Shown: piece after piece, positions 1 through 13,671 of the stretch | Layout of the letters: the number at the start of each line of letters is the position of its first letter | How positions within the stretch are numbered: position 1 is the first letter of the stretch | Source: an uncultured virus (IMG/VR IMGVR_UViG_3300015615_000325) | Taxonomy: Duplodnaviria > Heunggongvirae > Uroviricota > Caudoviricetes | IMG/VR virus record: IMGVR_UViG_3300015615_000325 | Location: 51,018-71,017 of that record | DNA length: 20,000 bases | Strand: one strand, 5' to 3' | The notes under the pieces: generated by a model | The model's input: the letters and a program-made list of their open reading frames with translations, nothing else | The model's database searches: none | What the model was told of the DNA's origin: nothing | Made by a program: the position numbers and the translations under genes

Positions 1-95
1 CGAGCACACCAAGCCCGGAAGACAGTGAATGCGGACTTGACGCGAGCTCGTTGCGGCTGCGTAGAGCCAGCGACCTCGGTCATACGGAGAAAGCC

Positions 96-374
96 ATGAA
101 GCTCAAACGCGTATTGTTCTGCACCGGACTGATCGTGGTGGCCGCTTTCTGGTCGAACTGCAGCGACACTGAACCGCGCACCCAGAGCGATTCGGTGAAG
201 CTGCAAGCCGAGACCGCCGCGATCGCGGCGAAGAAGTCGTGCTGGTGTGAAGGCGTCGAGTACAAGGACGGCTCAATCATTTGCCGATCCGACGGCTATC
301 GGCACAAGTGCTACGATGGAAGTTGGTCCAACACGAGAGAAAAGTGTCAGGTCGGAGACACAAAATGCAAGTGA
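96..374 (+). CDS. Small secreted or lipoprotein with Cys-rich C-terminal domain (DUF1496/VWC-like pattern)
   Basis: ATG at 96 preceded by GGAGA (86-90). Basic N-terminus plus hydrophobic stretch (MKLKRVLFCTGLIVVAAFWSNC). C-terminal CWCEGVEYKDGSIIC...KCYDGSW...C...C. Confidence 0.7.
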   Translation: MKLKRVLFCTGLIVVAAFWSNCSDTEPRTQSDSVKLQAETAAIAAKKSCWCEGVEYKDGSIICRSDGYRHKCYDGSWSNTREKCQVGDTKCK

Positions 375-436
375 GTGACATTGCCGGAGTTGCCCGCTCG
401 ATCGTCCGTCGCGCCGACAATCGCGGATCTTGCCTT

Positions 437-1594
437 ATGTGCCGCGGTTACCACGGAGTTTTGATTCTCGCGGTGGCGCTCGCTTCGAGCACGTGTCGGC
501 CGGCCCCGGCCGACGAGACGCTGAGGCTTCGCGAGGAGCTCGACCGCGCCCAATCGCTCCTCCTCCAGGATCAACGCAGAGCGGAGCTGCTCTGCGCCGA
601 CGCAACGGCGGCGTTCGATCAGGTCCGCGTTGCCGTTCGTGATGGGAAATCGACTGGCGAGCAAGAGCTGCAAGCGGCAGCCGGAACACTCGATCAGGCA
701 ACGCTGGCGTATCGTGAGGCGGTTGCGCTCGTCGGCCCGTACGAGGCTGCAAGGACAAAGTGGCTCGACGTTATCAAAGCTCCCCAGCAAGGCAGAGTCG
801 CTGATCCAGTGATCGCAAAGTCCCGACAGATTCTCGATCTCGTAATGCGCGCCGCATTTCGCGCGTCATGCTTGGCGAAGTCTGCTGTCTCGGGACAGCC
901 GATCAAGATCATCAAGGGCGAGCCGATCGTTCCGGGCCTGTTGGTTGCCGAGGCGGACGACGCGATCTCCGGCCGGCTCGATAAACGAGGCATCAAGAGC
1001 AAGCGGTTCAGCACTGGCCGTCATCGGGGGAGCGCGGAGGGAATCGCTGAGGTCAAGATCCCGGACGGTTTCGCCTACGTATCGCACCGATTCGACGAGG
1101 TAAACGCAGGTGGCCCCCACGGCACACGCATTGCCTACGACGAGCGAACAAACACGGTCCGAGGAAAGTATTGGATTCGCGCCGACAGCAGCGTCGGCCA
1201 TTTCGGCCCAATCACGTTCGGCCGTCACAGTTGGCTCTCGTTCAACATTGTCGTCACGGTGAAGGAGTTGTTGCCTTCGGAGCGTACGGTTGTAGCGACG
1301 CCGAAGGCAAAGGCGAAACCAAACCCGACGCCGGCGCCGGGCGAACCGGCGACCACCGCGACAGTGGTAACGATTTGGTGCACCGGCGTCGCCTGTCAGC
1401 CATCGTTCTCATACTGGGACACCAAGAAAACGATAGTGAGCTTCGCTGCCCGGGATTCAAAAGGACTGGGACATGCGGATGTGACGCAAATTGGTCCGCA
1501 TCGCCTGCGAATCCAGCACCAACCGATCGCTGGGACTCCGTGCGGTAATTCGTACGCCGGCTCACTCAACGTGGATGTTGCGATCTCCAACTAG
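437..1594 (+). CDS. Secreted hypothetical protein (helical N-domain, beta-rich domains, Pro/Thr/Lys linker)
   Basis: Long ORF (281..1594 in track). Likely start at ATG 437, giving signal-like MCRGYHGVLILAVALASSTC. Linker TPKAKAKPNPTPAPGEPATTAT precedes a C-terminal domain with Cys residues. Start uncertain. Confidence 0.7.
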   Translation: MCRGYHGVLILAVALASSTCRPAPADETLRLREELDRAQSLLLQDQRRAELLCADATAAFDQVRVAVRDGKSTGEQELQAAAGTLDQATLAYREAVALVGPYEAARTKWLDVIKAPQQGRVADPVIAKSRQILDLVMRAAFRASCLAKSAVSGQPIKIIKGEPIVPGLLVAEADDAISGRLDKRGIKSKRFSTGRHRGSAEGIAEVKIPDGFAYVSHRFDEVNAGGPHGTRIAYDERTNTVRGKYWIRADSSVGHFGPITFGRHSWLSFNIVVTVKELLPSERTVVATPKAKAKPNPTPAPGEPATTATVVTIWCTGVACQPSFSYWDTKKTIVSFAARDSKGLGHADVTQIGPHRLRIQHQPIAGTPCGNSYAGSLNVDVAISN

Positions 1595-1629
1595 TCGGCG
1601 ATCGGGAAGTATCTGATGGCATCGCTCCA

Positions 1630-1959
1630 TCACGATCGCGCGAACGCACCACACTCGGGGCAAGTGCCACTCTGATTTCCGACCATGCTGTAATTGCATC
1701 GCCAGCAACCGTCGTCGCTCGTTCGCGTCCAGTTTTTCGGGACGCTTCGACCACTACGCCGCGCCAGGGACTCTGCGGGCGTCAGCATCCGATCCGGTAC
1801 GAAATCGGGAACGTCGTCGGCGAAGATCCGGCGCCGGCGTCGAACCGCCGCCCGCCAGGGAAGGCGCCAGCACGGCCAGTCCGCCGGGTCTGGACGCGGA
1901 CAGAGCAGGCCGAACAGTGCGGCGAGCGGGAAGGTACAGCGATAGAGAGTGCGGAGCAC
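1630..1959 (-). CDS. Hypothetical protein with C-terminal zinc finger CWRCNYSMVGNQSGTCPECG
   Basis: The C-terminal motif matches the CxxCGYxLxGxxxxxCPECG pattern common in Planctomycete proteins. Start uncertain: GTG at 1959 chosen because the longer ORF (to 2058) runs through a terminator-like palindrome. Confidence 0.5.
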   Translation of the reverse strand: MLRTLYRCTFPLAALFGLLCPRPDPADWPCWRLPWRAAVRRRRRIFADDVPDFVPDRMLTPAESLARRSGRSVPKNWTRTSDDGCWRCNYSMVGNQSGTCPECGAFARS

Positions 1960-2009
1960 GAGGCGATTATCGCGATCGCGCCATCCGTTTACAACGCCGC
2001 ATCGTGCGC

Positions 2010-2042
2010 ATGAAAAAAGGCCGCTGCAGCGGCCTTTTTCAT
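2010..2042. terminator. Bidirectional intrinsic terminator-like palindrome
   Basis: AAAAAGGCCGCTGCAGCGGCCTTTTT (2014-2039) is a perfect 26-bp palindrome with A and T tracts on the flanks. Confidence 0.65.
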
Positions 2043-2052
2043 TGGTGTTACG

Positions 2053-2340
2053 CTCCACACAGTAGCACAGCCCTCCGGAGGGCTGAGAAGTCGGTGGAGG
2101 ATCAATTAAGTTTTCCTACAATGGTCCACCTCTCTTTCCGGGGTTCCATATAGGAAAAACCACCGCCAGATGATAGTCGCCTCGCGCCGGCGTTTCAGAT
2201 GGTCGCTTGATCAGGCGCGGGATGAGGATACGCTTGAATTGTCCATCACCACGGATTCGGGCAACCCCCCCTGCCTGAATCCACGATGGACACGGGGACG
2301 ACTGTTGAGTGTGCCAGTCGTCCCCACCTTTTTGGGTGGG
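2053..2340. ncRNA. Candidate structured non-coding RNA locus (multiple stem-loops)
   Basis: Stems: 2053-58/2094-99 enclosing palindrome 2068-2085; 2111-18/2151-58; 2240-47/2285-92 with inner 2253-63/2272-82; 2294-2304/2315-2325. No convincing ORF. Confidence 0.45.
2294..2333 (+). terminator. 11-bp GC-rich hairpin with loop TTGAGTGTGC followed by a T tract (terminator-like)
   Basis: GGGGACGACTG-TTGAGTGTGC-CAGTCGTCCCC-ACCTTTTT, located just past the methyltransferase stop codon. Confidence 0.5.
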
Positions 2341-2350
2341 AGCCAGCGGC

Positions 2351-4117
2351 CTAGTCGAACGGCAGAGTTGCGTCCGCTTTTTTGGCTTGCCTCGCTCTCG
2401 GGGCCTGCTTGAATGAACGGATGTCCTGAGTCAGCGGGAAATCGATTCGCTTTCCAGCCAGCAATTCCTTGATCGTCAGAATCTGAATCCGCGAGTGCTT
2501 TGTCCGCGCCAGCGTCTTCGTCTGGAAAAAGCCGGCGTCGGCGGCCTCCTTGCGCATCGCACCGGTCGGTGGTTCCAGCGTGATGAAAACTCCGATTGCC
2601 GCCTCCTCGCGCTCGACGACACCGCGCAAATCTCGGATCTGAGAGACGGTGACGCCCCCACCCTTGACGGAGATGACAACCGATTTTGTCTCACCGACCG
2701 CGTCGGTGATGTAGAGCCGCCCGTCGATTCCCTTGTCGGCACCTTTCTTTTCCTCCATCGGACGGGCGCCGACGAGCCCCAAGGCCCAATACTGGAACTG
2801 ATATTTGTCTTGTTCAGCGAGCGCCTTCGCGCTTTCGAGGTCTTCGGGTTCGCCGATGACTTCGTACGTTTCGGCGATCTTGGGACCGAACGCATCGGCT
2901 AGTCGCACCTTGATAAGATTGATGGCCAGGTGTGTGATGTCGATGCCGATCCAGCGGCGCTTAAGCTTCTGAGCAGCAGCGACAGCGGTTCCACATCCAC
3001 AAAACGGATCGAGCACGAGATCGTTCTCGTCTGTCGAAGATGAGATAATTCGTTCCAGCAGGCCCTCGGGTTTCTGCGTCGGATAGCCAAGTCGCTCATT
3101 ATCCCCTTGTGCAACCAGCCACCGAACATCTTCATCGATGCCCTCGTCAGTTCCGTACAGCGTTTCTCGCGTATGCGGTTGATACGCCCAAATGTCCGGA
3201 ATCGGCATGCCACGTGAGGTGTGAAGGTACTGGCGGTATGTCGGCATTGTACGGGAATCTGCCCCCGCGGCTTGGATGTATCCGGCTGCGTCGAGGGCGT
3301 CGAGCTTTGCCTGCGGTGACAGGTCGGGATCGATTCCCAATTCGTCGATCAGCTTCCCGGGTATTGCCCAGTGACGACCAACGGCGGTCGGATTGAACTT
3401 TCTCCACGGGAGGCCGCTTGCCCCTCCTCGTTGTCCCGCCCCGGTTAATGAGTTCGTCCAATATCGCCCCCGATCGTCCTTCGACTTGAAGTACCCCTCG
3501 ACGTGCCCCTTCATGTATGGCCGGAAAACACGGTTGAATCGCGACGAGTCGCCTTTGGAGTAGAACAGTATTACGTCGTGTATTGGACCGAATCGCTTCG
3601 AGCTGTTGTGAGAGCCGGTGCGGCGCCAAATGATCTCGTTCCTGAACTTGTCGGGTCCAAAAACCGAGTCCATCACGATCTTGAGGTAATGCGATGCCGT
3701 CGGATCGCAGTGGAGATAGATCGAACCGGTTTGCTTGAGCACACGACGGAGTTCGATCAGTCGCAGCGCCATCATGCTCAGATATGCAAGCATGTCCGAG
3801 CCCCCGAGGAAATCGTGCAGGCCCTTGAGGGCTCTGGCGACACGATCGTGGCCGGAATTCAGAACTTCGTGGTACTCCCTCGCGGCTTCCTCATCCCACG
3901 TCCAGCTATCTTCGAACGCCTTGATCTGAGCGTGCGCCTGCGTGCCATCCTTCTCAGCGAAGAGCACGTTGTAGTCTGCGTCTGAATTGAATGGTGGGTC
4001 CAAATAGACAAGATCGACGGACTCGTCTTCGACGTATCTGCGAAGAATATCGAGATTGTCGCCGTAGTAGAGGAAGTTCTTCGGTACACGGCCCGGATCG
4101 GATTTGCGTTTTCCCAT
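2351..4117 (-). CDS. Site-specific DNA methyltransferase (beta-class N6-adenine/N4-cytosine) with C-terminal Mrr-like restriction-endonuclease-fold domain
   Basis: Motif IV DLVYLDPPFNS precedes GYPTQKPEGLLERII and motif I VLDPFCGCGT (beta order). C-terminal DKYQFQYWAL...GADKGIDG...VISVKGG...IRDLRG is Mrr-like. Confidence 0.92.
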   Translation of the reverse strand: MGKRKSDPGRVPKNFLYYGDNLDILRRYVEDESVDLVYLDPPFNSDADYNVLFAEKDGTQAHAQIKAFEDSWTWDEEAAREYHEVLNSGHDRVARALKGLHDFLGGSDMLAYLSMMALRLIELRRVLKQTGSIYLHCDPTASHYLKIVMDSVFGPDKFRNEIIWRRTGSHNSSKRFGPIHDVILFYSKGDSSRFNRVFRPYMKGHVEGYFKSKDDRGRYWTNSLTGAGQRGGASGLPWRKFNPTAVGRHWAIPGKLIDELGIDPDLSPQAKLDALDAAGYIQAAGADSRTMPTYRQYLHTSRGMPIPDIWAYQPHTRETLYGTDEGIDEDVRWLVAQGDNERLGYPTQKPEGLLERIISSSTDENDLVLDPFCGCGTAVAAAQKLKRRWIGIDITHLAINLIKVRLADAFGPKIAETYEVIGEPEDLESAKALAEQDKYQFQYWALGLVGARPMEEKKGADKGIDGRLYITDAVGETKSVVISVKGGGVTVSQIRDLRGVVEREEAAIGVFITLEPPTGAMRKEAADAGFFQTKTLARTKHSRIQILTIKELLAGKRIDFPLTQDIRSFKQAPRARQAKKADATLPFD

Positions 4118-4177
4118 ATCGATCCGCTCAGAGCGACAGTCTGGCTCGCCACCGCGATGGCCACCTTCCCCATGTCG

Positions 4178-4747
4178 TCACGGCGCCGTGGGCTCTCCGC
4201 GCAGCTCCCTGAATCGCGTGGTGAGTTTCCCAGCCTTTGATGCGTGGTCGACGAGTCGTTCCAATCTATCGATCCGGCCTTTTTCCTTGGGGTCAAGGTC
4301 CTTTCCTTGATAGGCTTTCTCGATACGTTCTCGCGTGGCCTCTTTCATCGATGCAATGCCTCCGCTCGCAACTGCGTCGGCGATCGTCGTGGCCATCAGG
4401 TCGCACTCGACCGCCGCGTCACTCAGGCACTTAAACGCCAACGATTCGCGAATGACGGGCGTAGCTCTGCCTTTAAGATCCGCTGCGGCCTGCTTGATTT
4501 CCGTTAGAAGCGCCGCGTCATAGTTATCGATCGGAACATCCTGATTTTCGACGATCACCGATGCGAAACGCCGAATGCGGTCAGCCTGCTCGAGCAGAGC
4601 GGCGTTTAAGTCCTGTGAATCTTGGGGTTGCGGCGCAGTGGCCGCCGGGATTGGCGGAGGAATTGCCGCCGGCTGTGACGTCGGCGCCTGCCGGCATGAG
4701 GCGGTCGACGCTGCGAGCACGGTGAGGATGATCAGTCGCGTTTTCAT
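4178..4747 (-). CDS. Putative lipoprotein
   Basis: MKTRLIILTVLAASTASC is a signal peptide with lipobox-like TASC, followed by a Pro/Ala/Gln linker and a helical domain. Start overlaps the stop of the upstream ORF. Confidence 0.7.
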   Translation of the reverse strand: MKTRLIILTVLAASTASCRQAPTSQPAAIPPPIPAATAPQPQDSQDLNAALLEQADRIRRFASVIVENQDVPIDNYDAALLTEIKQAAADLKGRATPVIRESLAFKCLSDAAVECDLMATTIADAVASGGIASMKEATRERIEKAYQGKDLDPKEKGRIDRLERLVDHASKAGKLTTRFRELRGEPTAP

Positions 4748-5064
4748 TTGAACCACGACGCTATCCACGCGCGCACCCCGCCAGTTGGACGCTCCGGCGG
4801 AAGGTCTCGTGACGGCGCGCCGCCGAGCGCAGACCGCAGCTCCGCAATGAACTCGCGGGCTTCGGCCGGCGTAATTCTGCCCGCTTCCATCTCTCGCTCG
4901 ATGTAGTCGATTCCTGCGTTGGGATCGTCGCTGAGAATTTTTTCTGCCAGCTCTGCGGCGCCATGATCTCCCGTCATTTGGAGATAGTCCGCGAGAATTC
5001 CGCCCCCCGGCAGCTTGCCTTCGAGAGTGAACTCATCGTTTTTTGGGACGTTATCGTCGAGCAT
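4744..5064 (-). CDS. Hypothetical protein (short helical, SHOCT-like MEAGRITPAEAREFIAEL segment)
   Basis: 106-aa ORF with AAGGGA upstream of the ATG and a 4-nt overlap with the lipoprotein start. Confidence 0.6.
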   Translation of the reverse strand: MLDDNVPKNDEFTLEGKLPGGGILADYLQMTGDHGAAELAEKILSDDPNAGIDYIEREMEAGRITPAEAREFIAELRSALGGAPSRDLPPERPTGGVRAWIASWFK

Positions 5065-5070
5065 TTTCCC

Positions 5071-5100
5071 TTGACACCGAACATCACCCTAACTTATACT
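5071..5100 (+). promoter_or_regulatory. Sigma70-type promoter TTGACA-18-TATACT
   Basis: Consensus -35 TTGACA (5071-76) and 5/6 -10 TATACT (5095-5100) in a GC-rich background. Confidence 0.7.
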
Positions 5101-5205
5101 CGCGGCTGATCCGGACACGCCGGATGCCGCCCATTTGGACTCCTGCCGACGGCCACGGAATCGCACTCGCACGGACGCGGGCCGGCAGGATGGAGGGCGC
5201 GGTCC

Positions 5206-5535
5206 ATGCACTCACAGCCAACCTTCGACGATCTCCGTCGTGCCGAGGCGATTGGTCGCATCGTCAGCTTGCTCCCCGCTTTCGACGATGAGTACCTTTA
5301 CGATCTGGCCGACCGCCTTCGATGGCGGCTAGATCACGCTCGGCACGAGACTGAACCGCAGCTTCGCCTTTCCCGCTGTGATGTGAACGCGCCTCAAGCG
5401 CAACAAGCAACGGACGAAAGGAGTCGCAAAGAGCCCTTAGATCGCCCAATTCCAGTTCAGCTACCGCAGGTTTTGCAAGTTTCGCGATCAATTGGACCTG
5501 TCGCGCGAAATCAAGCCTCCCCACGGTCAGCGTAA
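5206..5535 (+). CDS. Hypothetical protein antisense to the RHH gene
   Basis: Downstream of the 5071 promoter with GGAGG at 5192-96. N-terminal half looks like a natural helical protein. Overlaps the RHH ORF on the opposite strand by 272 bp. Confidence 0.45.
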   Translation: MHSQPTFDDLRRAEAIGRIVSLLPAFDDEYLYDLADRLRWRLDHARHETEPQLRLSRCDVNAPQAQQATDERSRKEPLDRPIPVQLPQVLQVSRSIGPVARNQASPRSA

Positions 5536-5674
5536 GGATTCGAACGCCCGCACGTAACACAGCAGAGCGGTCTTGACCCGAAACATCCGTCCACTGGTCT
5601 AGCCAGGCGGCGTCTTCCGGATGCAACCGAACTGATTCGGGGGGCGGCGTTTTCTTGATTTTCTTCTCGCTCAT
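5264..5674 (-). CDS. Ribbon-helix-helix (CopG/Arc/MetJ-like) regulator, candidate phage repressor
   Basis: SVRLHPEDAAWLDQWTDVSGQDRSAVLRAGV fits the RHH strand-helix-G-x-x-RS-helix pattern. First gene left of the divergent control region. Confidence 0.65.
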   Translation of the reverse strand: MSEKKIKKTPPPESVRLHPEDAAWLDQWTDVSGQDRSAVLRAGVRILTLTVGRLDFARQVQLIAKLAKPAVAELELGDLRALCDSFRPLLVALEARSHHSGKGEAAVQSRAERDLAAIEGGRPDRKGTHRRKRGAS

Positions 5675-5790
5675 AACCGGATGCTACCGAACGATTTAGC
5701 CTTGTGAAAAATGTAAACAAAAAATCGTTGTATTTTTTGTTGACGACGTGACGACATCGGATGTATGCTGTGTCAGTCATGTTTACAAAA
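5675..5790. promoter_or_regulatory. AT-rich divergent promoter/operator region
   Basis: Rightward TTGACG (5740-45)-18-TATGCT (5764-69). Leftward TTCACA (5708-03)-16-TAGCAT (5686-81). Perfect 10-bp inverted repeat AACAAAAAAT/ATTTTTTGTT (5716-25/5732-41). TGTAAACA (5712-19) and TGTTTACA (5780-87). TGACGAC direct repeat (5741, 5749). Confidence 0.7.
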
Positions 5791-5973
5791 CCGACACGAC
5801 GCGTACGGATCACGGCCCGGAACGTCCACGACGGGAAATCCAAGACGTTCACGCTCTACGACACGGACTGCGATGAGGTCATCAATACCCTCGAATCGTC
5901 ATTCGCATCCGAGCAGGCCCCAGCGAAACGCACGCCCCGCAAGTCGGTCAAGCGATCAACGGTCTCAGCGTAA
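5779..5973 (+). CDS. Small basic hypothetical protein, first gene of the rightward operon
   Basis: ATG 9 nt after the -10 box (probably leaderless). MFTKPTRRVRITARNVHDGKSKTFTLY... Occupies the Cro-like position. Confidence 0.65.
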   Translation: MFTKPTRRVRITARNVHDGKSKTFTLYDTDCDEVINTLESSFASEQAPAKRTPRKSVKRSTVSA

Positions 5974-6076
5974 GCGAGTGGAACGCAGCGCGGTATGACG
6001 AATCACGGACGAAAATTCGGCGACGGATTGTGCAATCGCAAAAGATTCGGCTCAGGCCGAAATCAGGGGATTTGCA

Positions 6077-6355
6077 ATGCGTCCGGGGTTTTCGGGGAAG
6101 GAACTCGCAGAGGTTTTCAAGGTGGACGTGCGGTCCACCACCAAGACGTCTCGTGCGTTCTTCCGGCTGCTCGCGGAACTCTGGCTGCTCGGTCCAGACA
6201 AGGTGTTCAGGGACTTCCTTCCGATTCTCGACGAGGTCGTTCAGGAACGATTCGAGCGGATCGAGTTGGAACGCCTCGAAGCAATGCAAACCGGCAGAGC
6301 CGATCGACCGGTTCCAGCCTCACGACCCGTTTCCGCGCGGGCCGTGCGGCCGTGA
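6077..6355 (+). CDS. Small protein with HTH-like N-terminus
   Basis: AGGGGA SD-like sequence upstream. GFSGKELAEVFKVDVRSTTK resembles an HTH motif. Confidence 0.55.
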   Translation: MRPGFSGKELAEVFKVDVRSTTKTSRAFFRLLAELWLLGPDKVFRDFLPILDEVVQERFERIELERLEAMQTGRADRPVPASRPVSARAVRP

Positions 6356-6516
6356 CCGTGTTGGTCTCGGGTCCGGCGCGTCGTTTAACGAAGGCGACCC
6401 CGGTCAATTCTTGTCGCCCGTGTCACCGTGCCGTGGCACGGGCAACTATTCGAGGACAGAAGAATCGCGGCGTAGCGGTTCTGAGGCTGACGCAAGGGTG
6501 GCGCGTGGCCTGAATG

Positions 6517-6552
6517 AAAAGCCCCCGGCGAACTTGGCGGTCTGCCGGGGGC
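6517..6552. promoter_or_regulatory. GC-rich hairpin with TTGGCG apical loop, preceded by an A tract
   Basis: GCCCCCGGC (6521-29) pairs with GCCGGGGGC (6544-52). Apical AC-TTGGCG-GT. Lies 21 nt upstream of the 6574 start. Confidence 0.55.
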
Positions 6553-6573
6553 ATTGGGAAAGGTTGACAGATC

Positions 6574-8052
6574 ATGTCGAGCACAACGCTTCCAGTCAAG
6601 CGCGAAGCGCCGCAAGCGCCGGAAAAATCCGGACTCGCGAGCATCATTCTAATCCCATCCGACGAAGCTGGGGGGAAGCCAACAAACGCCCTCGTCAAAA
6701 TGACTCCGAACGGGCTGGTGCGATCCATTCACGTCCGCGTGCCGCTGAGCGAGGCGAAGGGCGAGGTCTGGTATCTCGGCGGATACGACGAAAACAATCG
6801 CTGGAACAAGAAAGCCAAAGCGGCGATCACGGCCGCTGGCTACAACAAGCTCAATCTAGTTGGCGGCGTCAGCTTCGCCACGCCCGAAACGCTCGTGTCC
6901 GAAGATGGGAAGGCATCGAGCAATCCGTACTTTCATCGCGAGTCCGGCGAGCTGGTGTATGTGAAGGTGCGGCGGATCGGCATCGGCCGCAACGCGGCGG
7001 GCAACCTCGTCGCGATCGACCTGACCGTCACGTACAACATCCGCGACTACTTCGCTCAGGACTGCTTTGCGAAGTGGAGCGGCAAGAAATCCGACACCGC
7101 GACGGCTGGCTGGGGGCAAATCTTCGACGCCGAAAACATCCCCGACGAAGTGCGGAAGGACGGGCGCCGCAAGCTCATTCGTTGCCCGGGCGGCGTGGTG
7201 CTGTCGATCGACCTGACGCAGAAAGACGCGATCGCTGTCATTCAGGAGCACATCAACCGCCAGAAGTTCGCTGAGCGGAATGCCTGGACCATCTGCGAGC
7301 GAAACATCCTCAAGAAGTTCTACGCAGCCGCGCAGCTCCGGCCGACGGACCTGACGGTGCCGGTAGTCGCCTGGCAGACGGTCGATCGAGCCCTTGAAGA
7401 GTTGGCACGGATCGCAGCGGAATCGCGCGGCGGTCGCGTCACGGTCGGCAATGAAGAACTCGAAATCGAGCGGCAGAACGAGGTCGCGAACGACAAGGAT
7501 GAAGTCGACGCGGCCCTTGCTGGTGACGCCGACGAGGAAATGCAACCGACGGAGCCGGACGGTCCGAGCGAACCATCAAGCATCGGCACGCCCGTTGATA
7601 CACCAGCCCCGAAGGACGGCGGTGCGTCCAAGCATCTGGAAGAACTCCGCGCCAAAGTGCGAGACCTGTACGGAAAGCTTCCAGCGGAAGTCGCTGACGA
7701 GCTGCTCACGGCGGCGAATCTGAACGCTGGCATTGGGTGGATCGCGGCAGTGAACGCAGCGGGCCCGCTCGAAGCGGCTGCCGGCGTCCTCACGATCGAC
7801 GTTGCGGGGCTCGTCGCGGACACGAAGCGAATCGTCGCGAAAGTCGCGGACTCGATCGCGAATCGGGATTTCATTTTCTGCCATCTGCTCGGAACGAAGG
7901 ACACCAAGTCGACCGGCGATGTCGCCCCGGCCCGGGCAATTCTCGGGCTCAAGACGGCCCGCGCCATCGAGGCGGGCCGCGACAAGATCAAGGCCACAAA
8001 TCACGACGAGTGGGCGGCGGCAATTCAGGACATTCAGGAAGGCTGGCTCTAA
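6574..8052 (+). CDS. Phage protein, putative single-strand annealing protein/recombinase (RecT/Bet-like position and motifs)
   Basis: 492-aa ORF with GGGAAAGG upstream. ITAAGYNKLN and KFAERNAWTICERNILKKFY are reminiscent of SSAP motifs. Acidic/Pro linker then a C-terminal helical domain. Sits upstream of the SMC-like ATPase. CDS is confident, function tentative. Confidence 0.55.
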   Translation: MSSTTLPVKREAPQAPEKSGLASIILIPSDEAGGKPTNALVKMTPNGLVRSIHVRVPLSEAKGEVWYLGGYDENNRWNKKAKAAITAAGYNKLNLVGGVSFATPETLVSEDGKASSNPYFHRESGELVYVKVRRIGIGRNAAGNLVAIDLTVTYNIRDYFAQDCFAKWSGKKSDTATAGWGQIFDAENIPDEVRKDGRRKLIRCPGGVVLSIDLTQKDAIAVIQEHINRQKFAERNAWTICERNILKKFYAAAQLRPTDLTVPVVAWQTVDRALEELARIAAESRGGRVTVGNEELEIERQNEVANDKDEVDAALAGDADEEMQPTEPDGPSEPSSIGTPVDTPAPKDGGASKHLEELRAKVRDLYGKLPAEVADELLTAANLNAGIGWIAAVNAAGPLEAAAGVLTIDVAGLVADTKRIVAKVADSIANRDFIFCHLLGTKDTKSTGDVAPARAILGLKTARAIEAGRDKIKATNHDEWAAAIQDIQEGWL

Positions 8053-8109
8053 ACGCGCCTGCGTTCTGGAACGACATCGTCAATCGACCCAACAACGGAG
8101 AGACGGATC

Positions 8110-10713
8110 ATGCGTATCGAAGAGATCAACATCAACGGGATCAAGTGTCTCGACACCACCATCCGGCCGGAGCGATGCAATCTGCTGGCCGGCGAGAACG
8201 GGCAGGGCAAGACGGCTGTCATGCAAGCCTTGCAGTTCGCGATTGAGGGAAGGACTTCGCTCGGAGATCGGCCGGAAGCGACGCTCCAACTGGTTCGCGG
8301 CGGCGAGTGCTCCATCAAGGTGCAGCTCGCGGATGGGTTCGCGTTCGAGCGATCGCTGCGACGCGACGCGCGCACTGGTTCGGTTTCGCAGCGGCTGCTC
8401 GTCTCGGGGCAGCAGTCGGTGAAGTTGCAGGACACCGAGCCACTCGTGAACGCGCACGTCGGGCAATTCTCCGAAATGTTCGATTTGTCCCTGTTCACTG
8501 GCCTCTCATCCGACAAGCAGCGCTCGAAACTGTTGGATCTGTGCGGCCGGGCTCAGAAGTCGGCGGACCTCGATGTCGCAGGCATCGGGCGTCGGATTTC
8601 GATGGAGTGGCTCCGCCTCGAGCGCGGCCCCGGGACGGTCGCTCAGGCCGAGAAGATGCACAGGGGCGCCGCCGACGAGCTGATCGCCCTACTACTCGAA
8701 GATGTCGCGAAGGATCGGCGGGAATCGTTCACTGAGATTCTCGCGGAAGTGCGGGCGGAGATCGCGGGGGAACTGACGGAGAGCATCGGCTCGGCGCTCG
8801 CGAAGGCGAAGGCGATCGAAAACTCCACGAAGGCGACGTGCGAGCAGGCCAACCAGGCGAAGCAGCGGCTCACCGATCGCAAGAACACGATGCGGGTGAT
8901 CGCTGCGACCGTCGAGGCCATGAAGGCGGAGCGGGCCAAGCTGATCGCGCAGCGCGAAGAGATCGTCGGGCAGATCGAGAATCAGAAGGGTCGCGAGGAA
9001 TCCATCAGGCAGGCCGAAACACGGCTGCTGACGCTGGACTCCGAGATCAAGCGGATGGAAACCACGCTCGCGGGCGTGACCATCGCGGACGAAAGCGAGG
9101 CGGTGCGGTTCACTGAGGCGGCGGAGATTCTCAAGTCCGCGCCGAAGCATGTACATGGGGTCATCGGCAATTTCCGCGAGAGCGCGGCAGCAAGGATGCT
9201 GACCGAAGCACTCAAGGTCATCGCACGACGCGACGCTCTCATCAAGGAACTGGAATCGCCAATTCCGACACCGGCCGACATCAAGGCGTGCGAGGACGTT
9301 CTCGCCTCGATGAAGCTGCCGGAACTTCCGGATCTGACGGCTTGCACCATCGCCGCGAACAACGCTCGCGACGCCGCCATAACGGCGCGGACCAATCGCG
9401 ACGCCGCCGGCAATCGGATGTACGCGGCTGACCGTGCGATGACGCTGGCAGAGCTGCAGATCGAGCAGCATGAGGCCGGGCCGTGGGCTCGGGCTCTGAA
9501 CCTGTTGACGTCATTCGTCGAGACGATCCCCGACGATGTTCGCGGCAAGCTCGATTTCGTCGTGCTCAACAAGTTGCAGACGACGATCGAGGAAGGCGTC
9601 GGCGTCGGTCGCAGGGCGGAACTCGACACCGCGGCCGGCAAGGCTCGGACCGAATGCGAGGCGGCGAAGGCTGCTTTCGAAGCGACAGAAAGGACGCTGG
9701 CGACGGCAGACCGCGAACGCGATGCTGCAATCGCCACTCTGGTAGCTGCCCAAAAGTCGCTCAACGAGGCGAAAGCCGCTCAGGAGACACAGAGAGCTAG
9801 CATCGAATCAAACCGACGCACCATCGAGTCGATGCGTCAGGATCTGGCGTCCGCCGAATCCAAGCGGGCCGAAGTTGAGCGGCTCGGCGCGGAACTCATC
9901 CGCATCGAAAAGAACGCGGCCGAGTCACTCGCTGCCGACCTGACCCACAAGGCCAACAACATCCGCCAGTCCATCACGATGCACGAGCACAACGTCGCAT
10001 CACTAGACCGCAAGCGGCAGGACCGCATCGCGGCCGAGAAGGCGCTGAATGAACTTCGGTCGGCGGGCGGATGGATTCCGAACGAGCAGCTCGAACAGCA
10101 GCGGAACGGAATCACCGATCAAGTCAACGCGATCGACGCCGACATTGACGCGAAGGGGAAGTATCAGGCCCTCGAATCGGAACTGGCCCGGGCGATCGCA
10201 GACACGGAGCGTGAGACGGTTCGGCACGACGTCGCGAAGCGGGTTGCACAGGCGATCCGGGCGATTCGTGACGGACTGATGGGCGAGCTGGTTCGGCCGC
10301 TGCTCGATCGGATCAACAAGTTCCTCGCCGTGGCCGCTCCGGGGTGCGTTGCGTACTGCGAACTCGAACAGATCAAGGGCGAGACGCGCAAGCCGATCTT
10401 CGAAATCGGCTGGGAAGTGGACGGGATGAAGCGCGTCTCGTTGCCGGCGCTTTCCGGCGGGGAAGCTGCTCTGTTCGGGGCCGGGCTGGCCTACGCCCTG
10501 GTCTGCATCGCGAATCCGCCGCTGCGGCTGCTGCTGATCGAGGCGGCGGAAATCGACGCAGCGCACATGACGCGGATGCTCGATGCGTTGCGGGCGGTCA
10601 GCGACGACGTCGGGAACATCTTCGTCGCGACCTGCGACGAGAGCTTCGCGACGGAGATCGAGGGCTGGAATCACGTTCAGTTGCAGCAAGCGGCTGCGGC
10701 GGTGGCGGCGTGA
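8110..10713 (+). CDS. SMC/Rad50/SbcC-like coiled-coil ABC ATPase
   Basis: N-terminal MRIEEININGIK and Walker A GENGQGKT, long coiled coil, signature LSGGE, degenerate Walker B LLLIEAAEID. Confidence 0.88.
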   Translation: MRIEEININGIKCLDTTIRPERCNLLAGENGQGKTAVMQALQFAIEGRTSLGDRPEATLQLVRGGECSIKVQLADGFAFERSLRRDARTGSVSQRLLVSGQQSVKLQDTEPLVNAHVGQFSEMFDLSLFTGLSSDKQRSKLLDLCGRAQKSADLDVAGIGRRISMEWLRLERGPGTVAQAEKMHRGAADELIALLLEDVAKDRRESFTEILAEVRAEIAGELTESIGSALAKAKAIENSTKATCEQANQAKQRLTDRKNTMRVIAATVEAMKAERAKLIAQREEIVGQIENQKGREESIRQAETRLLTLDSEIKRMETTLAGVTIADESEAVRFTEAAEILKSAPKHVHGVIGNFRESAAARMLTEALKVIARRDALIKELESPIPTPADIKACEDVLASMKLPELPDLTACTIAANNARDAAITARTNRDAAGNRMYAADRAMTLAELQIEQHEAGPWARALNLLTSFVETIPDDVRGKLDFVVLNKLQTTIEEGVGVGRRAELDTAAGKARTECEAAKAAFEATERTLATADRERDAAIATLVAAQKSLNEAKAAQETQRASIESNRRTIESMRQDLASAESKRAEVERLGAELIRIEKNAAESLAADLTHKANNIRQSITMHEHNVASLDRKRQDRIAAEKALNELRSAGGWIPNEQLEQQRNGITDQVNAIDADIDAKGKYQALESELARAIADTERETVRHDVAKRVAQAIRAIRDGLMGELVRPLLDRINKFLAVAAPGCVAYCELEQIKGETRKPIFEIGWEVDGMKRVSLPALSGGEAALFGAGLAYALVCIANPPLRLLLIEAAEIDAAHMTRMLDALRAVSDDVGNIFVATCDESFATEIEGWNHVQLQQAAAAVAA

Positions 10714-10988
10714 AACGCAAACTTCGATTCCTACTCCGCGAGATTCGCCGGTTCGAACTCGTGACCGGGTTCGTCTGCCTGACTCGAACAGTTACCGGAG
10801 CGGGAATCACGTTCGCGTTCGCCAACGTCGCCGCCGGCAAGAAGGCGAGTCTCACGATCAGCAGCCACGACCTGCGTCGCAGCGAGAACAGTATCGCGGT
10901 CACGCTGAATCATCGGTTCGCGGCGGTCAAGAAACTACTCGCGTCGCCGAAGTCGAATCGGGTCGCGGTCGAAGAGGTTGCACGATGA
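10710..10988 (+). CDS. Hypothetical phage protein
   Basis: GTGA overlap with the ATPase stop. Ends with SD-containing GAGG and an ATGA overlap with the next gene. Confidence 0.65.
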   Translation: MKRKLRFLLREIRRFELVTGFVCLTRTVTGAGITFAFANVAAGKKASLTISSHDLRRSENSIAVTLNHRFAAVKKLLASPKSNRVAVEEVAR

Positions 10989-11224
10989 ACGTCCCCTGGT
11001 CCCGAGACTGGCCCGCCACGCGCGAGATCACCGGCGGACGCACGTACTACCTGCTCGAACAGGCGGACTTCGATCGGGCGTGCGCGTGCGTGAACGCGAT
11101 GGATGGCATCGACGACCCGGCGGCGTTCGTCGCTGAGGCTCAGAAGCAGTGGCCGGCCGGCGACGCGATGGCGGTTCAGAACTCAATGGGCGAGGGCATG
11201 AACAACGGAGCGCTGAAGCCGTGA
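10985..11224 (+). CDS. Hypothetical phage protein (RACACVNAMDGI motif)
   Basis: ATGA coupling and GAGG SD. Resembles the R-x-x-A-C-V-N-A-x-x-G-I pattern seen in small phage early proteins. Confidence 0.7.
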   Translation: MNVPWSRDWPATREITGGRTYYLLEQADFDRACACVNAMDGIDDPAAFVAEAQKQWPAGDAMAVQNSMGEGMNNGALKP

Positions 11225-11445
11225 TCTGCACTTGCTCAGTCCATTGTGTTGAGTCCGCGTATCACGAATCGGCGTGCTGTGGAGAACTCGATTGCAAATG
11301 CGATTGCCACGGCAGTCTTGTTGTCGAGTGGACAGATCGGAATGGCCGAAGTCGATCGACTCGATTCAAGACTCACGCCGACGCGGCACGATTCGAGGAA
11401 GGCCATAAATCAACAGGTAGGCATAACGGAGCGCTGAAGCCGTGA
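11204..11445 (+). repeat. Exact 21-bp direct repeat AACGGAGCGCTGAAGCCGTGA at 11204-11224 and 11425-11445
   Basis: Both copies read directly from the sequence. Each contains an SD (GGAG) and an overlapping GTG start/TGA stop. Confidence 0.95.
11221..11445 (+). CDS. Small Cys/His-rich protein with C-terminal integrase-arm-like DNA-binding motif
   Basis: GTG start with GGAG SD. 8 Cys and 3 His in the first 30 aa, then VEWTDRNGRSRSTRFKTHADAARFE. Confidence 0.6.
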   Translation: MICTCSVHCVESAYHESACCGELDCKCDCHGSLVVEWTDRNGRSRSTRFKTHADAARFEEGHKSTGRHNGALKP

Positions 11446-11684
11446 CGATCATCGGCCGTCCAGTTCGACGCGAGACGTTCGGCTCGGTTCACGAGCGCGG
11501 CAAACGCCGCAACGTGATCGTGATCCTTGAGCCCCCAAATCTCATCAGCTTCCGCGCGAAGGGAACGCGGCGGACCTACGCGCTTACGACTGATGCGTGC
11601 TGGACCTACGCAGTCAAGGTGCAAGTGGAGTCAGAGAAGGCGAGGAAGCGGAAGGAACGCGCCGAGAAACGAAAACGGAAATGA
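11442..11684 (+). CDS. Small basic hypothetical phage protein
   Basis: GTGA coupling and GGAG SD. ISFRAKGTRRTY motif and a Lys/Arg-rich tail. Confidence 0.75.
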   Translation: MTIIGRPVRRETFGSVHERGKRRNVIVILEPPNLISFRAKGTRRTYALTTDACWTYAVKVQVESEKARKRKERAEKRKRK

Positions 11685-11686
11685 CA

Positions 11687-11743
11687 TCGCCCCCCGCCCG
11701 CAGCGACGCTGTTGAGTGTGCCAGCGGCCTGCGGCGGGGGCGA
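11687..11743 (+). promoter_or_regulatory. Long intergenic hairpin with loop TTGAGTGTGC upstream of the UvrD gene
   Basis: TCGCCCCCCGCCCGCAG..CGCTG / CAGCG..CTGCGGCGGGGGCGA. The apical 16 nt are identical to 2302-2317. Confidence 0.65.
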
Positions 11744-11766
11744 CCCTTGAACGATCGGATTGAACG

Positions 11767-13671
11767 ATGAAACTCACGACCGCCCAACAACACGCAGTTG
11801 ATACCGACGCCCGCGAAGTGCTCGTCATCAGCGGAGCCGGCAGCGGCAAGACTCGCACGATGGTCGAGCGAACCGTCCGGATGATCCGCGGCGGTGCATC
11901 GCCGCTCGATTTCCTCGTGCTCACGTTCACCCGCCGGGCGTCGAACGAAATGCGCGAGCGTCTGGCTCGCCGACTCGGCGAACTCGGATACGACAACCCC
12001 GAGCGAACCATCGGCTCGATGCTTTGCGGCACGTTCCACTCGATCGCCCTTCGGTTTCTGCGGCTCGACGGCGACAAGCTCGGGCTCAACGGCCCGACGC
12101 TGACGGTGCTCGATCAGAAAGACGCCGACATGGTGCTCGAACAGGTCTGCCGAGACCTGGGGTACGTCAACGGCCGCTCATGGAAACACGATCTCTCGTG
12201 GTCGAAGGTCACGAAGTATCGCGAGGCCATCTATACCGGGCAGGCCGACGACTACGCGGCCTCGCCGTACCGCCAGCCACTGACCCGGGCATTCACTGAA
12301 TATCGGCACCGGATGGTCGGGCTGAACTCACTCGACTTCGGTTCGCTGCTGCAGGAATGCCGGCGGCTGCTGACGGAGTACCCCGACGTACTCGCCAGGT
12401 ATCGCGATCGCATCAAGCACGTCGTCGTCGATGAGGTTCAGGACTGCGACGCAACGCAATTCGATCTGCACGATTTCTTCGCTCCGCCGGCGACTTTCTT
12501 CGCGGTCGGCGACTTCCGCCAGTCAATCTACGGCTGGCGTGGCGCCCGCCCCGATCTGTGCCTCAAGCGGCACCCGAACGCCGAGCTGATCCAGCTTCGC
12601 GAAAACTTCCGCTCGGGCGCTCGGATCGTCACGGCCGCGAACTCGCTGATCGCCCACAACGGGAAGTACATGGCGGAGCCGATGGTCTCTGCCACCGGCC
12701 GCGACGGCATCGTCGTCGATGCGTTCGGCCGTTCCGCCGATGTTGCTCGTCTGCTGCCGAAGGTTCGATCGGTTCACGGATTCGCCTGGCGTGACGTCGC
12801 GGTGCTCGCTCGGAATCACCGGGCGCTCGCGCGGCTGGCGGACGCATGCCACGAGGCCGGCGTTCCGCACTACCGCGTCGGGGCCGGGTTCGACATCTGC
12901 GACACGGACGACTTCCGGAAGCTGCACGCTGCGATGCGGCTGTGCGTGAATCACGCCGACAACGTCGCGTTCCTGCGACTGCTTGAGACGTTCAACCTGA
13001 CGCCGACGCAGTACGCCGAGGTCCGCAAGACTGCGGCCGATCGGGCGATCTCGCACTTCGAGGCGATGGTGCAGTCGAAGTTCGGCGAATGCACCGAACT
13101 CGAAACGCTCGTCGACATTCACGGTCACGTTCCCACCGAGGCCGAAAGCCAGCAGGCAATCGAGGACGTCAAGACGCTGGTTAATACCGGCGTCGCTGAA
13201 CCGCTCCCGCTCACCCCCATCGGAGTAATCGGTACGGACTTGACCGCCCTGATGGCGGCGGTGTTCCCCGCTCCGCTCCCGACCGAGCTGTTCGATTTCT
13301 GGATGAAGCACTGCCAGGGGAAGTCATACGCCGAGGCCCTCGACTGGTTCGTGACGCGCGACGCTCAGGACGACGCGGCATCCGGCGACGTGGTCACGCT
13401 CAGCACGATTCACGCGGCGAAGGGGTTGGAGTGGCCGCTCGTTCTCATCGTGAACTGCAATGACGGCGAACTGCCGTCGTCGATGTCGATGCGAAACGGC
13501 GACGTCGATCACGAAGAGCGCAATGTCGCGTACGTCGCGATCACGCGGGCTCGCGAGACCCTGATTCTTCACCACCGCCGCCCGGAGGATCAGGACGAAT
13601 CGCGAACCATCAAGCCGCCGAGCCGGTTCCTGGCGGAAGCGGGCGTTCTGCAATTAGAGGCGGTGTCATGA
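11767..13671 (+). CDS. uvrD: UvrD/PcrA/Rep family SF1 DNA helicase
   Basis: Motifs GAGSGKT, LTFTRRA, GTFHS, VVDEVQD, VGDFRQSIYGWRGA, LRENFRS, TIHAAKGLEW, EERNVAYVAITRAR. Confidence 0.93.
   Translation: MKLTTAQQHAVDTDAREVLVISGAGSGKTRTMVERTVRMIRGGASPLDFLVLTFTRRASNEMRERLARRLGELGYDNPERTIGSMLCGTFHSIALRFLRLDGDKLGLNGPTLTVLDQKDADMVLEQVCRDLGYVNGRSWKHDLSWSKVTKYREAIYTGQADDYAASPYRQPLTRAFTEYRHRMVGLNSLDFGSLLQECRRLLTEYPDVLARYRDRIKHVVVDEVQDCDATQFDLHDFFAPPATFFAVGDFRQSIYGWRGARPDLCLKRHPNAELIQLRENFRSGARIVTAANSLIAHNGKYMAEPMVSATGRDGIVVDAFGRSADVARLLPKVRSVHGFAWRDVAVLARNHRALARLADACHEAGVPHYRVGAGFDICDTDDFRKLHAAMRLCVNHADNVAFLRLLETFNLTPTQYAEVRKTAADRAISHFEAMVQSKFGECTELETLVDIHGHVPTEAESQQAIEDVKTLVNTGVAEPLPLTPIGVIGTDLTALMAAVFPAPLPTELFDFWMKHCQGKSYAEALDWFVTRDAQDDAASGDVVTLSTIHAAKGLEWPLVLIVNCNDGELPSSMSMRNGDVDHEERNVAYVAITRARETLILHHRRPEDQDESRTIKPPSRFLAEAGVLQLEAVS

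Follow-up and report, generated by a model that had tools for sequence, protein, structure and literature searches.

What could explain two hairpins that lie 9.4 kb apart in a phage genome, stand on stems of differing sequence, and end in the same 16 nucleotides? The question is raised by the final 20 kb (51018-71017) of the 71,017-bp IMG/VR virus record IMGVR_UViG_3300015615_000325. This 20-kb stretch is the window analysed here, and positions refer to the window unless stated otherwise. The record is rated complete, carries direct terminal repeats of 141 bp, and has a G+C content of 62%. Outside the window it encodes an integrase, a tape-measure protein, a portal, a large terminase, and several DNA-modification-type enzymes. 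From the integrase and the structural genes, the source looks like a temperate tailed phage. An initial annotation of the window had taken the shared hairpin tip to suggest a selected recognition element and had proposed either antisense pairing of two RNAs or same-sense binding sites for a protein of the nut/boxB kind. The two hairpins are called H1 and H2, and the coordinates of the features are collected in Table 1.

The 16-mer CTGTTGAGTGTGCCAG has exactly two copies, both on the plus strand. Each copy consists of a 10-nt loop, TTGAGTGTGC, and three closing pairs, placed on top of a GC-rich non-coding hairpin. The existence of an identical apex in two intergenic hairpins with differing stems is confirmed by the exact copies, the folding, and the unrelated flanks. 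No further copy has been found in the window at up to 2 mismatches. The whole record holds two forward and no reverse matches at up to 1 mismatch, and no third copy on either strand at up to 3 mismatches. In the phage record, the search for further copies suggested in the initial annotation returns only these two, both forward. At 4 mismatches, five more matches appear in the record, with no hairpin seen by eye in the printed flanks. A covariance model of the two tips, run over 534 kb (the whole genome and 38 related loci), likewise recovers only H1 and H2, with E ~1e-6 and no third copy. The next match (genome 8194-8225, 17 bits, E 1.5) was dropped as a copy, as it lies inside an open reading frame (ORF) and has no fold on the tip.

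Outside the tip, the two sites have nothing detectable in common. The similarity of the 60-nt flanks is no better than that of shuffled sequences (local alignment p 0.54 on the left and 0.45 on the right). A MAFFT alignment had suggested left-flank homology across a 16-nt gap, which was dropped because the local alignment scores equal those of the shuffles. Only one block of at least 12 nt is common to 2040-2350 and the rest of the genome. A shared coding origin of the tip was also rejected, since the copies lie in different reading frames of the ORFs that overlap them. Read on the minus strand, the tip is TGGCAC-N5-ACAG, which is similar to a sigma-54 -24 box; this candidate was dropped by eye because the -12 GC of that motif is missing.

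The 16-nt repeat by itself is weak evidence, because such repeats also arise in simulated windows and are common in the genome. The value of 0.01 expected copies applies to the word CTGTTGAGTGTGCCAG alone. An exact 16-nt direct repeat occurs in 23 of 100 Markov-2 simulated 20-kb windows, and the real genome contains 19 direct and 13 inverted exact 16-mer pairs (simulated means 4.5 and 4.2). What is rare is the placement of the repeat on its hairpins. A pair of repeats was counted as tip-centred when, in both copies, the repeat contains the loop and the stem comprises 5 or more perfect pairs, with 2 or more pairs outside the repeat. Of the 1,195 pairs of repeats in this genome that reach 12 nt, two are tip-centred, namely H1/H2 and a minimal tRNA-T-arm-like case. 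In 158 other loci (1.93 Mb), the count is 2 of 6,338, both minimal. The H1/H2 repeat is centred to the base on both loops and both stems run past it. In H1 the stem adds 8 perfect pairs beyond the repeat; in H2 it adds 2 perfect pairs and a long imperfect stem. Since the loop and its closing pairs are identical beside unrelated stems, the reverse of what is expected of a decaying duplicated terminator, the tip is probably a selected element or a very recent insertion. The argument of the initial annotation, that a conserved loop on divergent stems points to a selected recognition element, is backed by the rarity of tip-centring and by the unrelated flanks.

Both hairpin sites are non-coding, because the ORFs that overlap them lack a codon-position GC pattern and have no protein family matches. 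Their GC by codon position is flat, 0.59/0.60/0.62 and 0.71/0.60/0.55, compared to 0.67/0.44/0.81 in uvrD. The whole genome contains 24 hairpins whose stem is perfect over 8 bp or more, H1 among them; a looser census counts 305 hairpins and is uninformative. Folded in a 66-nt context, H1 has a z of -1.6 on the plus strand, where 14 of 200 shuffles are as good, and of -2.5 on the minus strand (2 of 200). The H2 fold has an energy of -37.0 kcal/mol on the plus strand (z -3.0) and -40.2 kcal/mol on the minus strand (z -4.0), and on either strand none of 200 shuffles is as good. On the plus strand, the H1 stem is followed by ACCTTTTTGGG, with the terminator-like tail ACCUUUUU (also written ACCTTTTT). 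H2 has no U tract on the plus strand and a broken U-rich tail on the minus strand. Neither hairpin passes a terminator scan with a loop limit of 8 nt.

H1 is the middle one of three abutting hairpins within a 360-nt non-coding structured stretch, 1990-2350 (z -3.1 and -4.5). The same stretch contains an 18-nt perfect palindrome (2068-2085) and a low-GC segment (2100-2160), and a minus-strand promoter-like site at 2198-2170 could yield an RNA of ~150 nt ending at the terminator 2014-2039. A weak Rfam match to 6C RNA (RF01066) covers 2251-2329 on the plus strand. It scores 19.3 bits against a gathering score of 47, and the C-rich loop is present in the first hairpin only; the 6C identity was therefore dropped.

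The arrangement of the genes is as first annotated, with a leftward unit of an RHH-like gene, a lipoprotein gene, and a methylase gene ending at 2351, and with the uvrD start at 11767. The methylase (DNA methyltransferase) gene is the last of the leftward operon, and H1 lies 26 nt downstream of its minus-strand stop. The first canonical terminator downstream of this operon is the bidirectional one at 2014-2039. Because that terminator would end the leftward transcript and would also stop any plus-strand transcript from 281-1945, H1 is expected to be transcribed on the minus strand. H2 is located between two plus-strand genes and ends 23 nt before the uvrD ATG. The uvrD gene heads a block that also encodes an HTH/O-like protein, a ParB-like protein, a DEAD-box helicase, and a primase-like protein. 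If the predicted transcripts come from opposite strands, the direct DNA repeat becomes a pair of complementary RNAs. The geometry of the antisense model in the initial annotation fits this layout, as H1 lies past the methylase stop, shielded by the terminator from plus-strand read-through, and H2 lies inside a plus-strand operon.

Loop-loop antisense pairing between the H1 and H2 transcripts is the leading, though tentative, reading of the locus. In the proposed mechanism, the leftward mRNA for the RHH-like protein, the lipoprotein, and the methylase would run past the stop at 2351 into a structured 3' tail, in which H1 would expose the loop GCACACUCAA. On the rightward early mRNA, H2 would expose the loop UUGAGUGUGC, 23 nt ahead of the uvrD start. 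Between these loops, 10 Watson-Crick pairs are possible, and 16 once the three closing pairs have opened. Such pairing would couple the fates of the two divergent operons; activity of the leftward operon could cause cleavage or termination at the uvrD-led replication block or prevent its expression, or the reverse could apply. The calculated energy of the loop duplex is -15.0 kcal/mol for 10 nt and -29.3 kcal/mol for 16 nt. In the minus-strand RNA, the H1 loop is predicted to be wholly unpaired with a probability of 0.93, the top value of its transcript (0.45 in the plus-strand RNA). The H2 loop in the plus-strand RNA has a probability of 0.20, at the 97.8th percentile of its transcript. Full complementarity of the two RNA loops, as in kissing loops, follows by construction if the sites are transcribed from opposite strands. 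A scan for sigma-70-like promoters with a score of 8/12 or more found none that would give a plus-strand RNA over H1 or a minus-strand RNA over H2, with the proviso that the promoters of the host may differ. With no more than two copies in the genome, the element looks more like a dedicated pair than like a dispersed repeat.

On a wider view, the phage would wire two divergent operons through one complementary loop pair, in which the 3' tail of the leftward mRNA would kiss an intercistronic hairpin gating the replication block led by uvrD. This would be a trans-acting RNA layer of mutual exclusion or immunity that belongs to no known RNA family and consists of a 10-16-nt tip on freely evolving stems; we regard this extension as rather doubtful.

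Several observations weigh against antisense pairing. Both transcripts and their directions are predicted from gene orientation and terminator position only, and the promoter scans are weak evidence. H1 together with ACCUUUUU on the plus strand resembles an intrinsic terminator, which would suggest a plus-strand RNA ending there. In H2, the minimum-energy fold of the plus strand slips register via two G-U pairs and gives a 7-nt, partly closed loop; the canonical 10-nt loop is only 0.5 kcal/mol less stable. The G-U pairs favour neither strand. The complementarity does not extend past 16 nt, and the uvrD ribosome-binding site lies outside H2. Apart from the sub-threshold 6C RNA, Rfam has no match at either hairpin site at E<=10, and at this limit no c4-type match is present in the whole window or in close-ups of 1950-2400 and 11600-11850; the comparison with c4 and c4-a1b1 that the initial annotation had proposed has thus come out negative. 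Finally, no relative carrying the tip has been found in the collections searched (cultured phages, IMG/VR, and JGI metagenomes), from which records very close to the window may be missing.

The searches behind this last point cover the word, the neighbouring proteins, and the gene order. In IMG/VR, the exact 16-mer has 4 matches, none of them in a hairpin. JGI metagenomes contain at least 120 matches, and among the matches listed none is on a comparable hairpin, the longest gapless stem extension being 5 pairs in AT-rich DNA. At a number of the JGI loci (L168-L287, e.g. L221, L233, L241, L247), the 16-mer is part of an unrelated AT-rich repeat, TTATTGCAAATTTA-16mer-TGAAAGAATTTTGAAAATCGGTCAATATT, which occurs many times in a few metagenomes and, among the matches listed, has no hairpin around it. 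Cultured phages give no match to 10500-13000, and only distant methylase matches to 1-4200. A search of IMG/VR by UvrD alone returns no loci and one by UvrD alignment returns 78, with a best identity of 42%; the methylase retrieves 2 loci with a different 3' context, and the SMC-like protein none. GTDB genomes give only cellular UvrD/Rep proteins, at 26-33%. The closest UvrD proteins, one at 60% identity and one at 86% over 57% of the length, are not placed on DNA.

The closest relative that is placed (L099, 42% UvrD identity) keeps the order of a 492-aa protein gene, the SMC-like gene, and uvrD, with a gap of 70 nt. In the phage studied here, ~1 kb lies between the SMC-like ATPase gene and uvrD and is occupied by small ORFs and H2. 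This stretch is missing from L099, and its small ORFs match none of the 78 related loci. The last of them, an 80-aa ORF ending 2 nt before H2, is equally without a match in the 78 loci, and its Atlas matches are viral hypothetical clusters only. Two consecutive small ORFs end in an identical 21 nt, AACGGAGCGCTGAAGCCGTGA, at 11195-11224 and 11416-11445, 221 nt apart. The repeated segment looks like a duplicated translational-coupling junction. In both ORFs it encodes identical final residues and provides a GGAG as well as a GTGA in which the stop overlaps the start of the next ORF.

Other explanations of the shared tip have to be set against antisense pairing. Conserved closing pairs are a feature of protein-hairpin operators such as boxB, the MS2 operator, and the RAT elements. 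The three closing pairs kept with the loop, and the identical orientation of the two copies, would suit a same-sense site, in which one phage or host factor reads the loop and its closing pairs, either in plus-strand RNA or in DNA that is extruded or single-stranded. The factor could be a regulator that binds RNA, could act in processing or termination, or could serve in replication or priming. The terminator-like tail ACCUUUUU on the plus strand of H1 agrees with such a site, and a weak TTGATC-16-TACGCT (7/12, by eye) could start a plus-strand RNA of ~95 nt at ~2241. H2 heads the replication gene block, and the ORF that ends just before it has a Lys/Arg-rich tail. However, the terminator 2014-2039 separates H1 from known plus-strand transcription, and no plus-strand promoter-like site of at least 8/12 is present between 2040 and 2300. 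The genome has only two sites, no candidate binding protein has been found, and the proteins of the window include no HUH/Rep or similar hairpin-nicking enzyme. A same-sense site would call for a plus-strand RNA over H1, for which there is no prediction, or for a role at the level of DNA; it is a serious possibility that nevertheless appears doubtful. A different use of direct copies would be at the level of DNA, where they would bound a 9.4-kb segment, and recombination or nicking in the loops would lead to excision, inversion control, or rolling-circle-type processing. Direct repeats do flank a gene block here, and HUH-nuclease origins typically combine a conserved loop with a stem that varies. 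However, neither a recombinase nor an HUH enzyme can be detected within the block or next to it, and the integrase and the candidate attP lie ~40 kb away. The block also includes the genes for the 492-aa and the SMC-like proteins, and since these have remained with uvrD in L099, it is not a discrete island. Sites of this kind are quite improbable.

The remaining explanations assign no joint function to the two tips. H1 and H2 could be ordinary hairpins of 3' ends or intercistronic regions, acting as terminators, attenuators, or stabilisers of mRNA, with the tip as a functionless relic of module exchange or patchy recombination. Both hairpins are located at gene-block boundaries, and H2 closes the ~1-kb stretch that L099 lacks and that holds other exact repeats, among them the 21-nt junction and 17 nt that recur in the tRNA-like sequence on the attP side (Table 1). 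A precedent for recombination inside the loop of a stem-loop cassette is documented for phage RB49 (PMC2839356; PMC4122927). Nevertheless, an unselected duplicated hairpin should keep its stems and lose its loop, while here 16 of 16 positions are identical between random flanks, and one crossover cannot explain why the sequence differs to the left as well as to the right of a 16-nt patch. The PeSL cassettes described in T4-like phages are conserved intergenic stem-loops bordering variable genes, and their crossovers have been mapped even inside the loop (PMC2839356). They differ from H1 and H2 in being multi-copy motifs of ~100 bp with a sigma-70 promoter and conserved GGGG...CCCC stems, whereas H1 and H2 share 16 nt in two copies. 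With two copies in a 71-kb phage genome and unrelated flanks, a PeSL-like cassette was dropped, as was a dispersed (REP-like) repeat. We consider a relic unlikely. Coincidence of two unrelated hairpins would draw on the abundance of exact 16-nt repeats and on the tip-centred pairs that arise elsewhere by the minimal criterion. No background case comes close to centring to the base on both loops with stems beyond, though, and for two given hairpins the odds of an identical 10-nt loop with three closing pairs are ~4^-13 by our own arithmetic. Coincidence deserves almost no credence.

If antisense pairing is taken as the working interpretation, the nearest known systems include the immunity RNAs of other temperate phages. 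In C4 of P1/P7 and CI of P4, short stretches of an immunity-side RNA, for which 10-16 nt is within the usual range, pair with the early or replication transcript and shut it down. The proposed H1/H2 pairing would be alike in that an immunity-side RNA acts on a replication transcript in trans. It differs in having no Rfam c4 match and one pairing segment, compared to two in C4-type RNAs. The proposed regulator would be a hairpin in the 3' tail of an mRNA and not a processed 5' leader RNA, and its target contains no ribosome-binding site. CopA/CopT of R1 and RNA I/RNA II of ColE1 share with H1 and H2 fully complementary loops with a YUNR-type word. In those systems, however, both RNAs come from the same locus (cis-antisense) and are complementary over their whole length, whereas H1 and H2 are 9.4 kb apart and complementary in the tip only. 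The YUNR word itself says little, as ~36% of random 10-nt loops contain one by our own arithmetic.

The boxB hairpins of lambda nutL and nutR are similar to H1 and H2 in that each early operon of a temperate phage carries one of two near-identical hairpin tips. In lambda, the loop has 5 nt, and the sites are promoter-proximal, in the sense of each divergent operon, with inverted DNA copies. H1 and H2, on the other hand, have 10-nt loops and direct copies, and H1 is found at the 3' end of its operon. A boxA-like YGCTCTTWA at up to 1 mismatch occurs 4 times in the window (chance mean 6.75), and never within 700 nt of either hairpin. From the initial interpretation, the selection of the tip, the gene context, and the antisense geometry find support; the nut/boxB model fits poorly and the YUNR argument is weak.

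The surroundings of the two hairpins show further features. The 136-aa RHH-like protein encoded by the first gene of the leftward operon is a candidate regulator, and a promoter-like site is located at 5708-5681. The leftward and rightward units are separated by a divergent promoter region, which contains a candidate operator, the AT-rich perfect inverted repeat AACAAAAAAT-cgttgt-ATTTTTTGTT of 10 bp (5716-5741). The best promoter-like site of the window, TTGACA-18-TATACT at 5071-5100 (11/12), points to the right inside the leftward operon, and an RNA starting there would be antisense to the RHH-like gene. On the far side of H1, the minus-strand ORF 1630-2058 has a CxxC...CxxC zinc-ribbon-like end (CWRCNYSMVGNQSGTCPECG) and no family match. 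With a start at 2058, it would cross the terminator palindrome, and an in-frame start near 1957 seems likelier.

The phage probably integrates into a tRNA gene. Beside the integrase gene (genome 10699-11826, minus strand), the minus strand of genome 11930-11990 resembles the 3' part of a tRNA, with the T arm ACGAG/TTCGAAC/CTCGT, a 7-nt acceptor strand, and the discriminator A. A whole tRNA is not called there by ARAGORN, and the stretch is likely to be the attP core for tRNA-gene integration. The window copy of GGTTCGAACTCGTGACC, a word shared with this T arm, is found 40 nt past the stop of the SMC-like gene, at the point where the small-ORF stretch ending in H2 begins. This repeat could be chance or a trace of the arrival of that stretch.

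Table 1. Coordinates, strands, and supporting evidence of the features described in the text (window positions unless marked as genome).
Feature	Position	Strand	Basis or match
Shared tip, left copy, CTG + TTGAGTGTGC + CAG	2302-2317	+	exact match
Shared tip, right copy	11709-11724	+	exact match
Hairpin H1, GGGGACGACTG / 10-nt loop / CAGTCGTCCCC, 11 perfect pairs	2294-2325		stem scan and folding
Hairpin H2, long imperfect GC-rich stem with the same tip, 57 nt, 21-22 pairs	11687-11743		folding
Hairpin with C-rich loop, abutting H1	2240-2292		folding
Mini-hairpin CCCACC/GGTGGG, loop a T5 (A5) run, between H1 and the methylase stop	2325-2345		folding
Canonical bidirectional intrinsic terminator, AAAAAGGCCGC-tgca-GCGGCCTTTTT	2014-2039		terminator scan
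DNA methyltransferase with C-terminal Mrr-like / inactive-REase domain	2351-4117	-	PF01555 2.3e-43, PF22722 1.7e-9, phrog_67 1.2e-59
Predicted lipoprotein, signal peptide ending in lipobox-like ...STASC	4178-4768	-	translation by eye; no family match
RHH-like gene, 136 aa, first of the leftward operon	5264-5674	-	N-terminus by eye; no family match
80-aa ORF with very basic Lys/Arg-rich C-terminal tail, ending 2 nt before H2	11442-11684	+	GC3 0.73
UvrD/PcrA-type helicase, first gene after H2	11767-13671	+	PF00580 7.4e-55, phrog_1967 9.2e-99
17-nt exact direct repeat GGTTCGAACTCGTGACC	10750-10766 and genome 11954-11970		SMC-like gene side and attP-side tRNA-like T arm

If the shared tip proves to be a protein site or a relic, the outcome would be a modest annotation of two regulatory hairpins in a poorly annotated phage. 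If the tips pair, they would form a compact and portable post-transcriptional link between the lysogeny-side and the replication-side transcripts of this phage. Its anatomy would be unlike that of P1 C4 and P4 CI, and it would represent a variant of phage antisense control not described before. It would also provide a search rule for uncultured phages, namely identical hairpin tips on unrelated stems in oppositely transcribed units.

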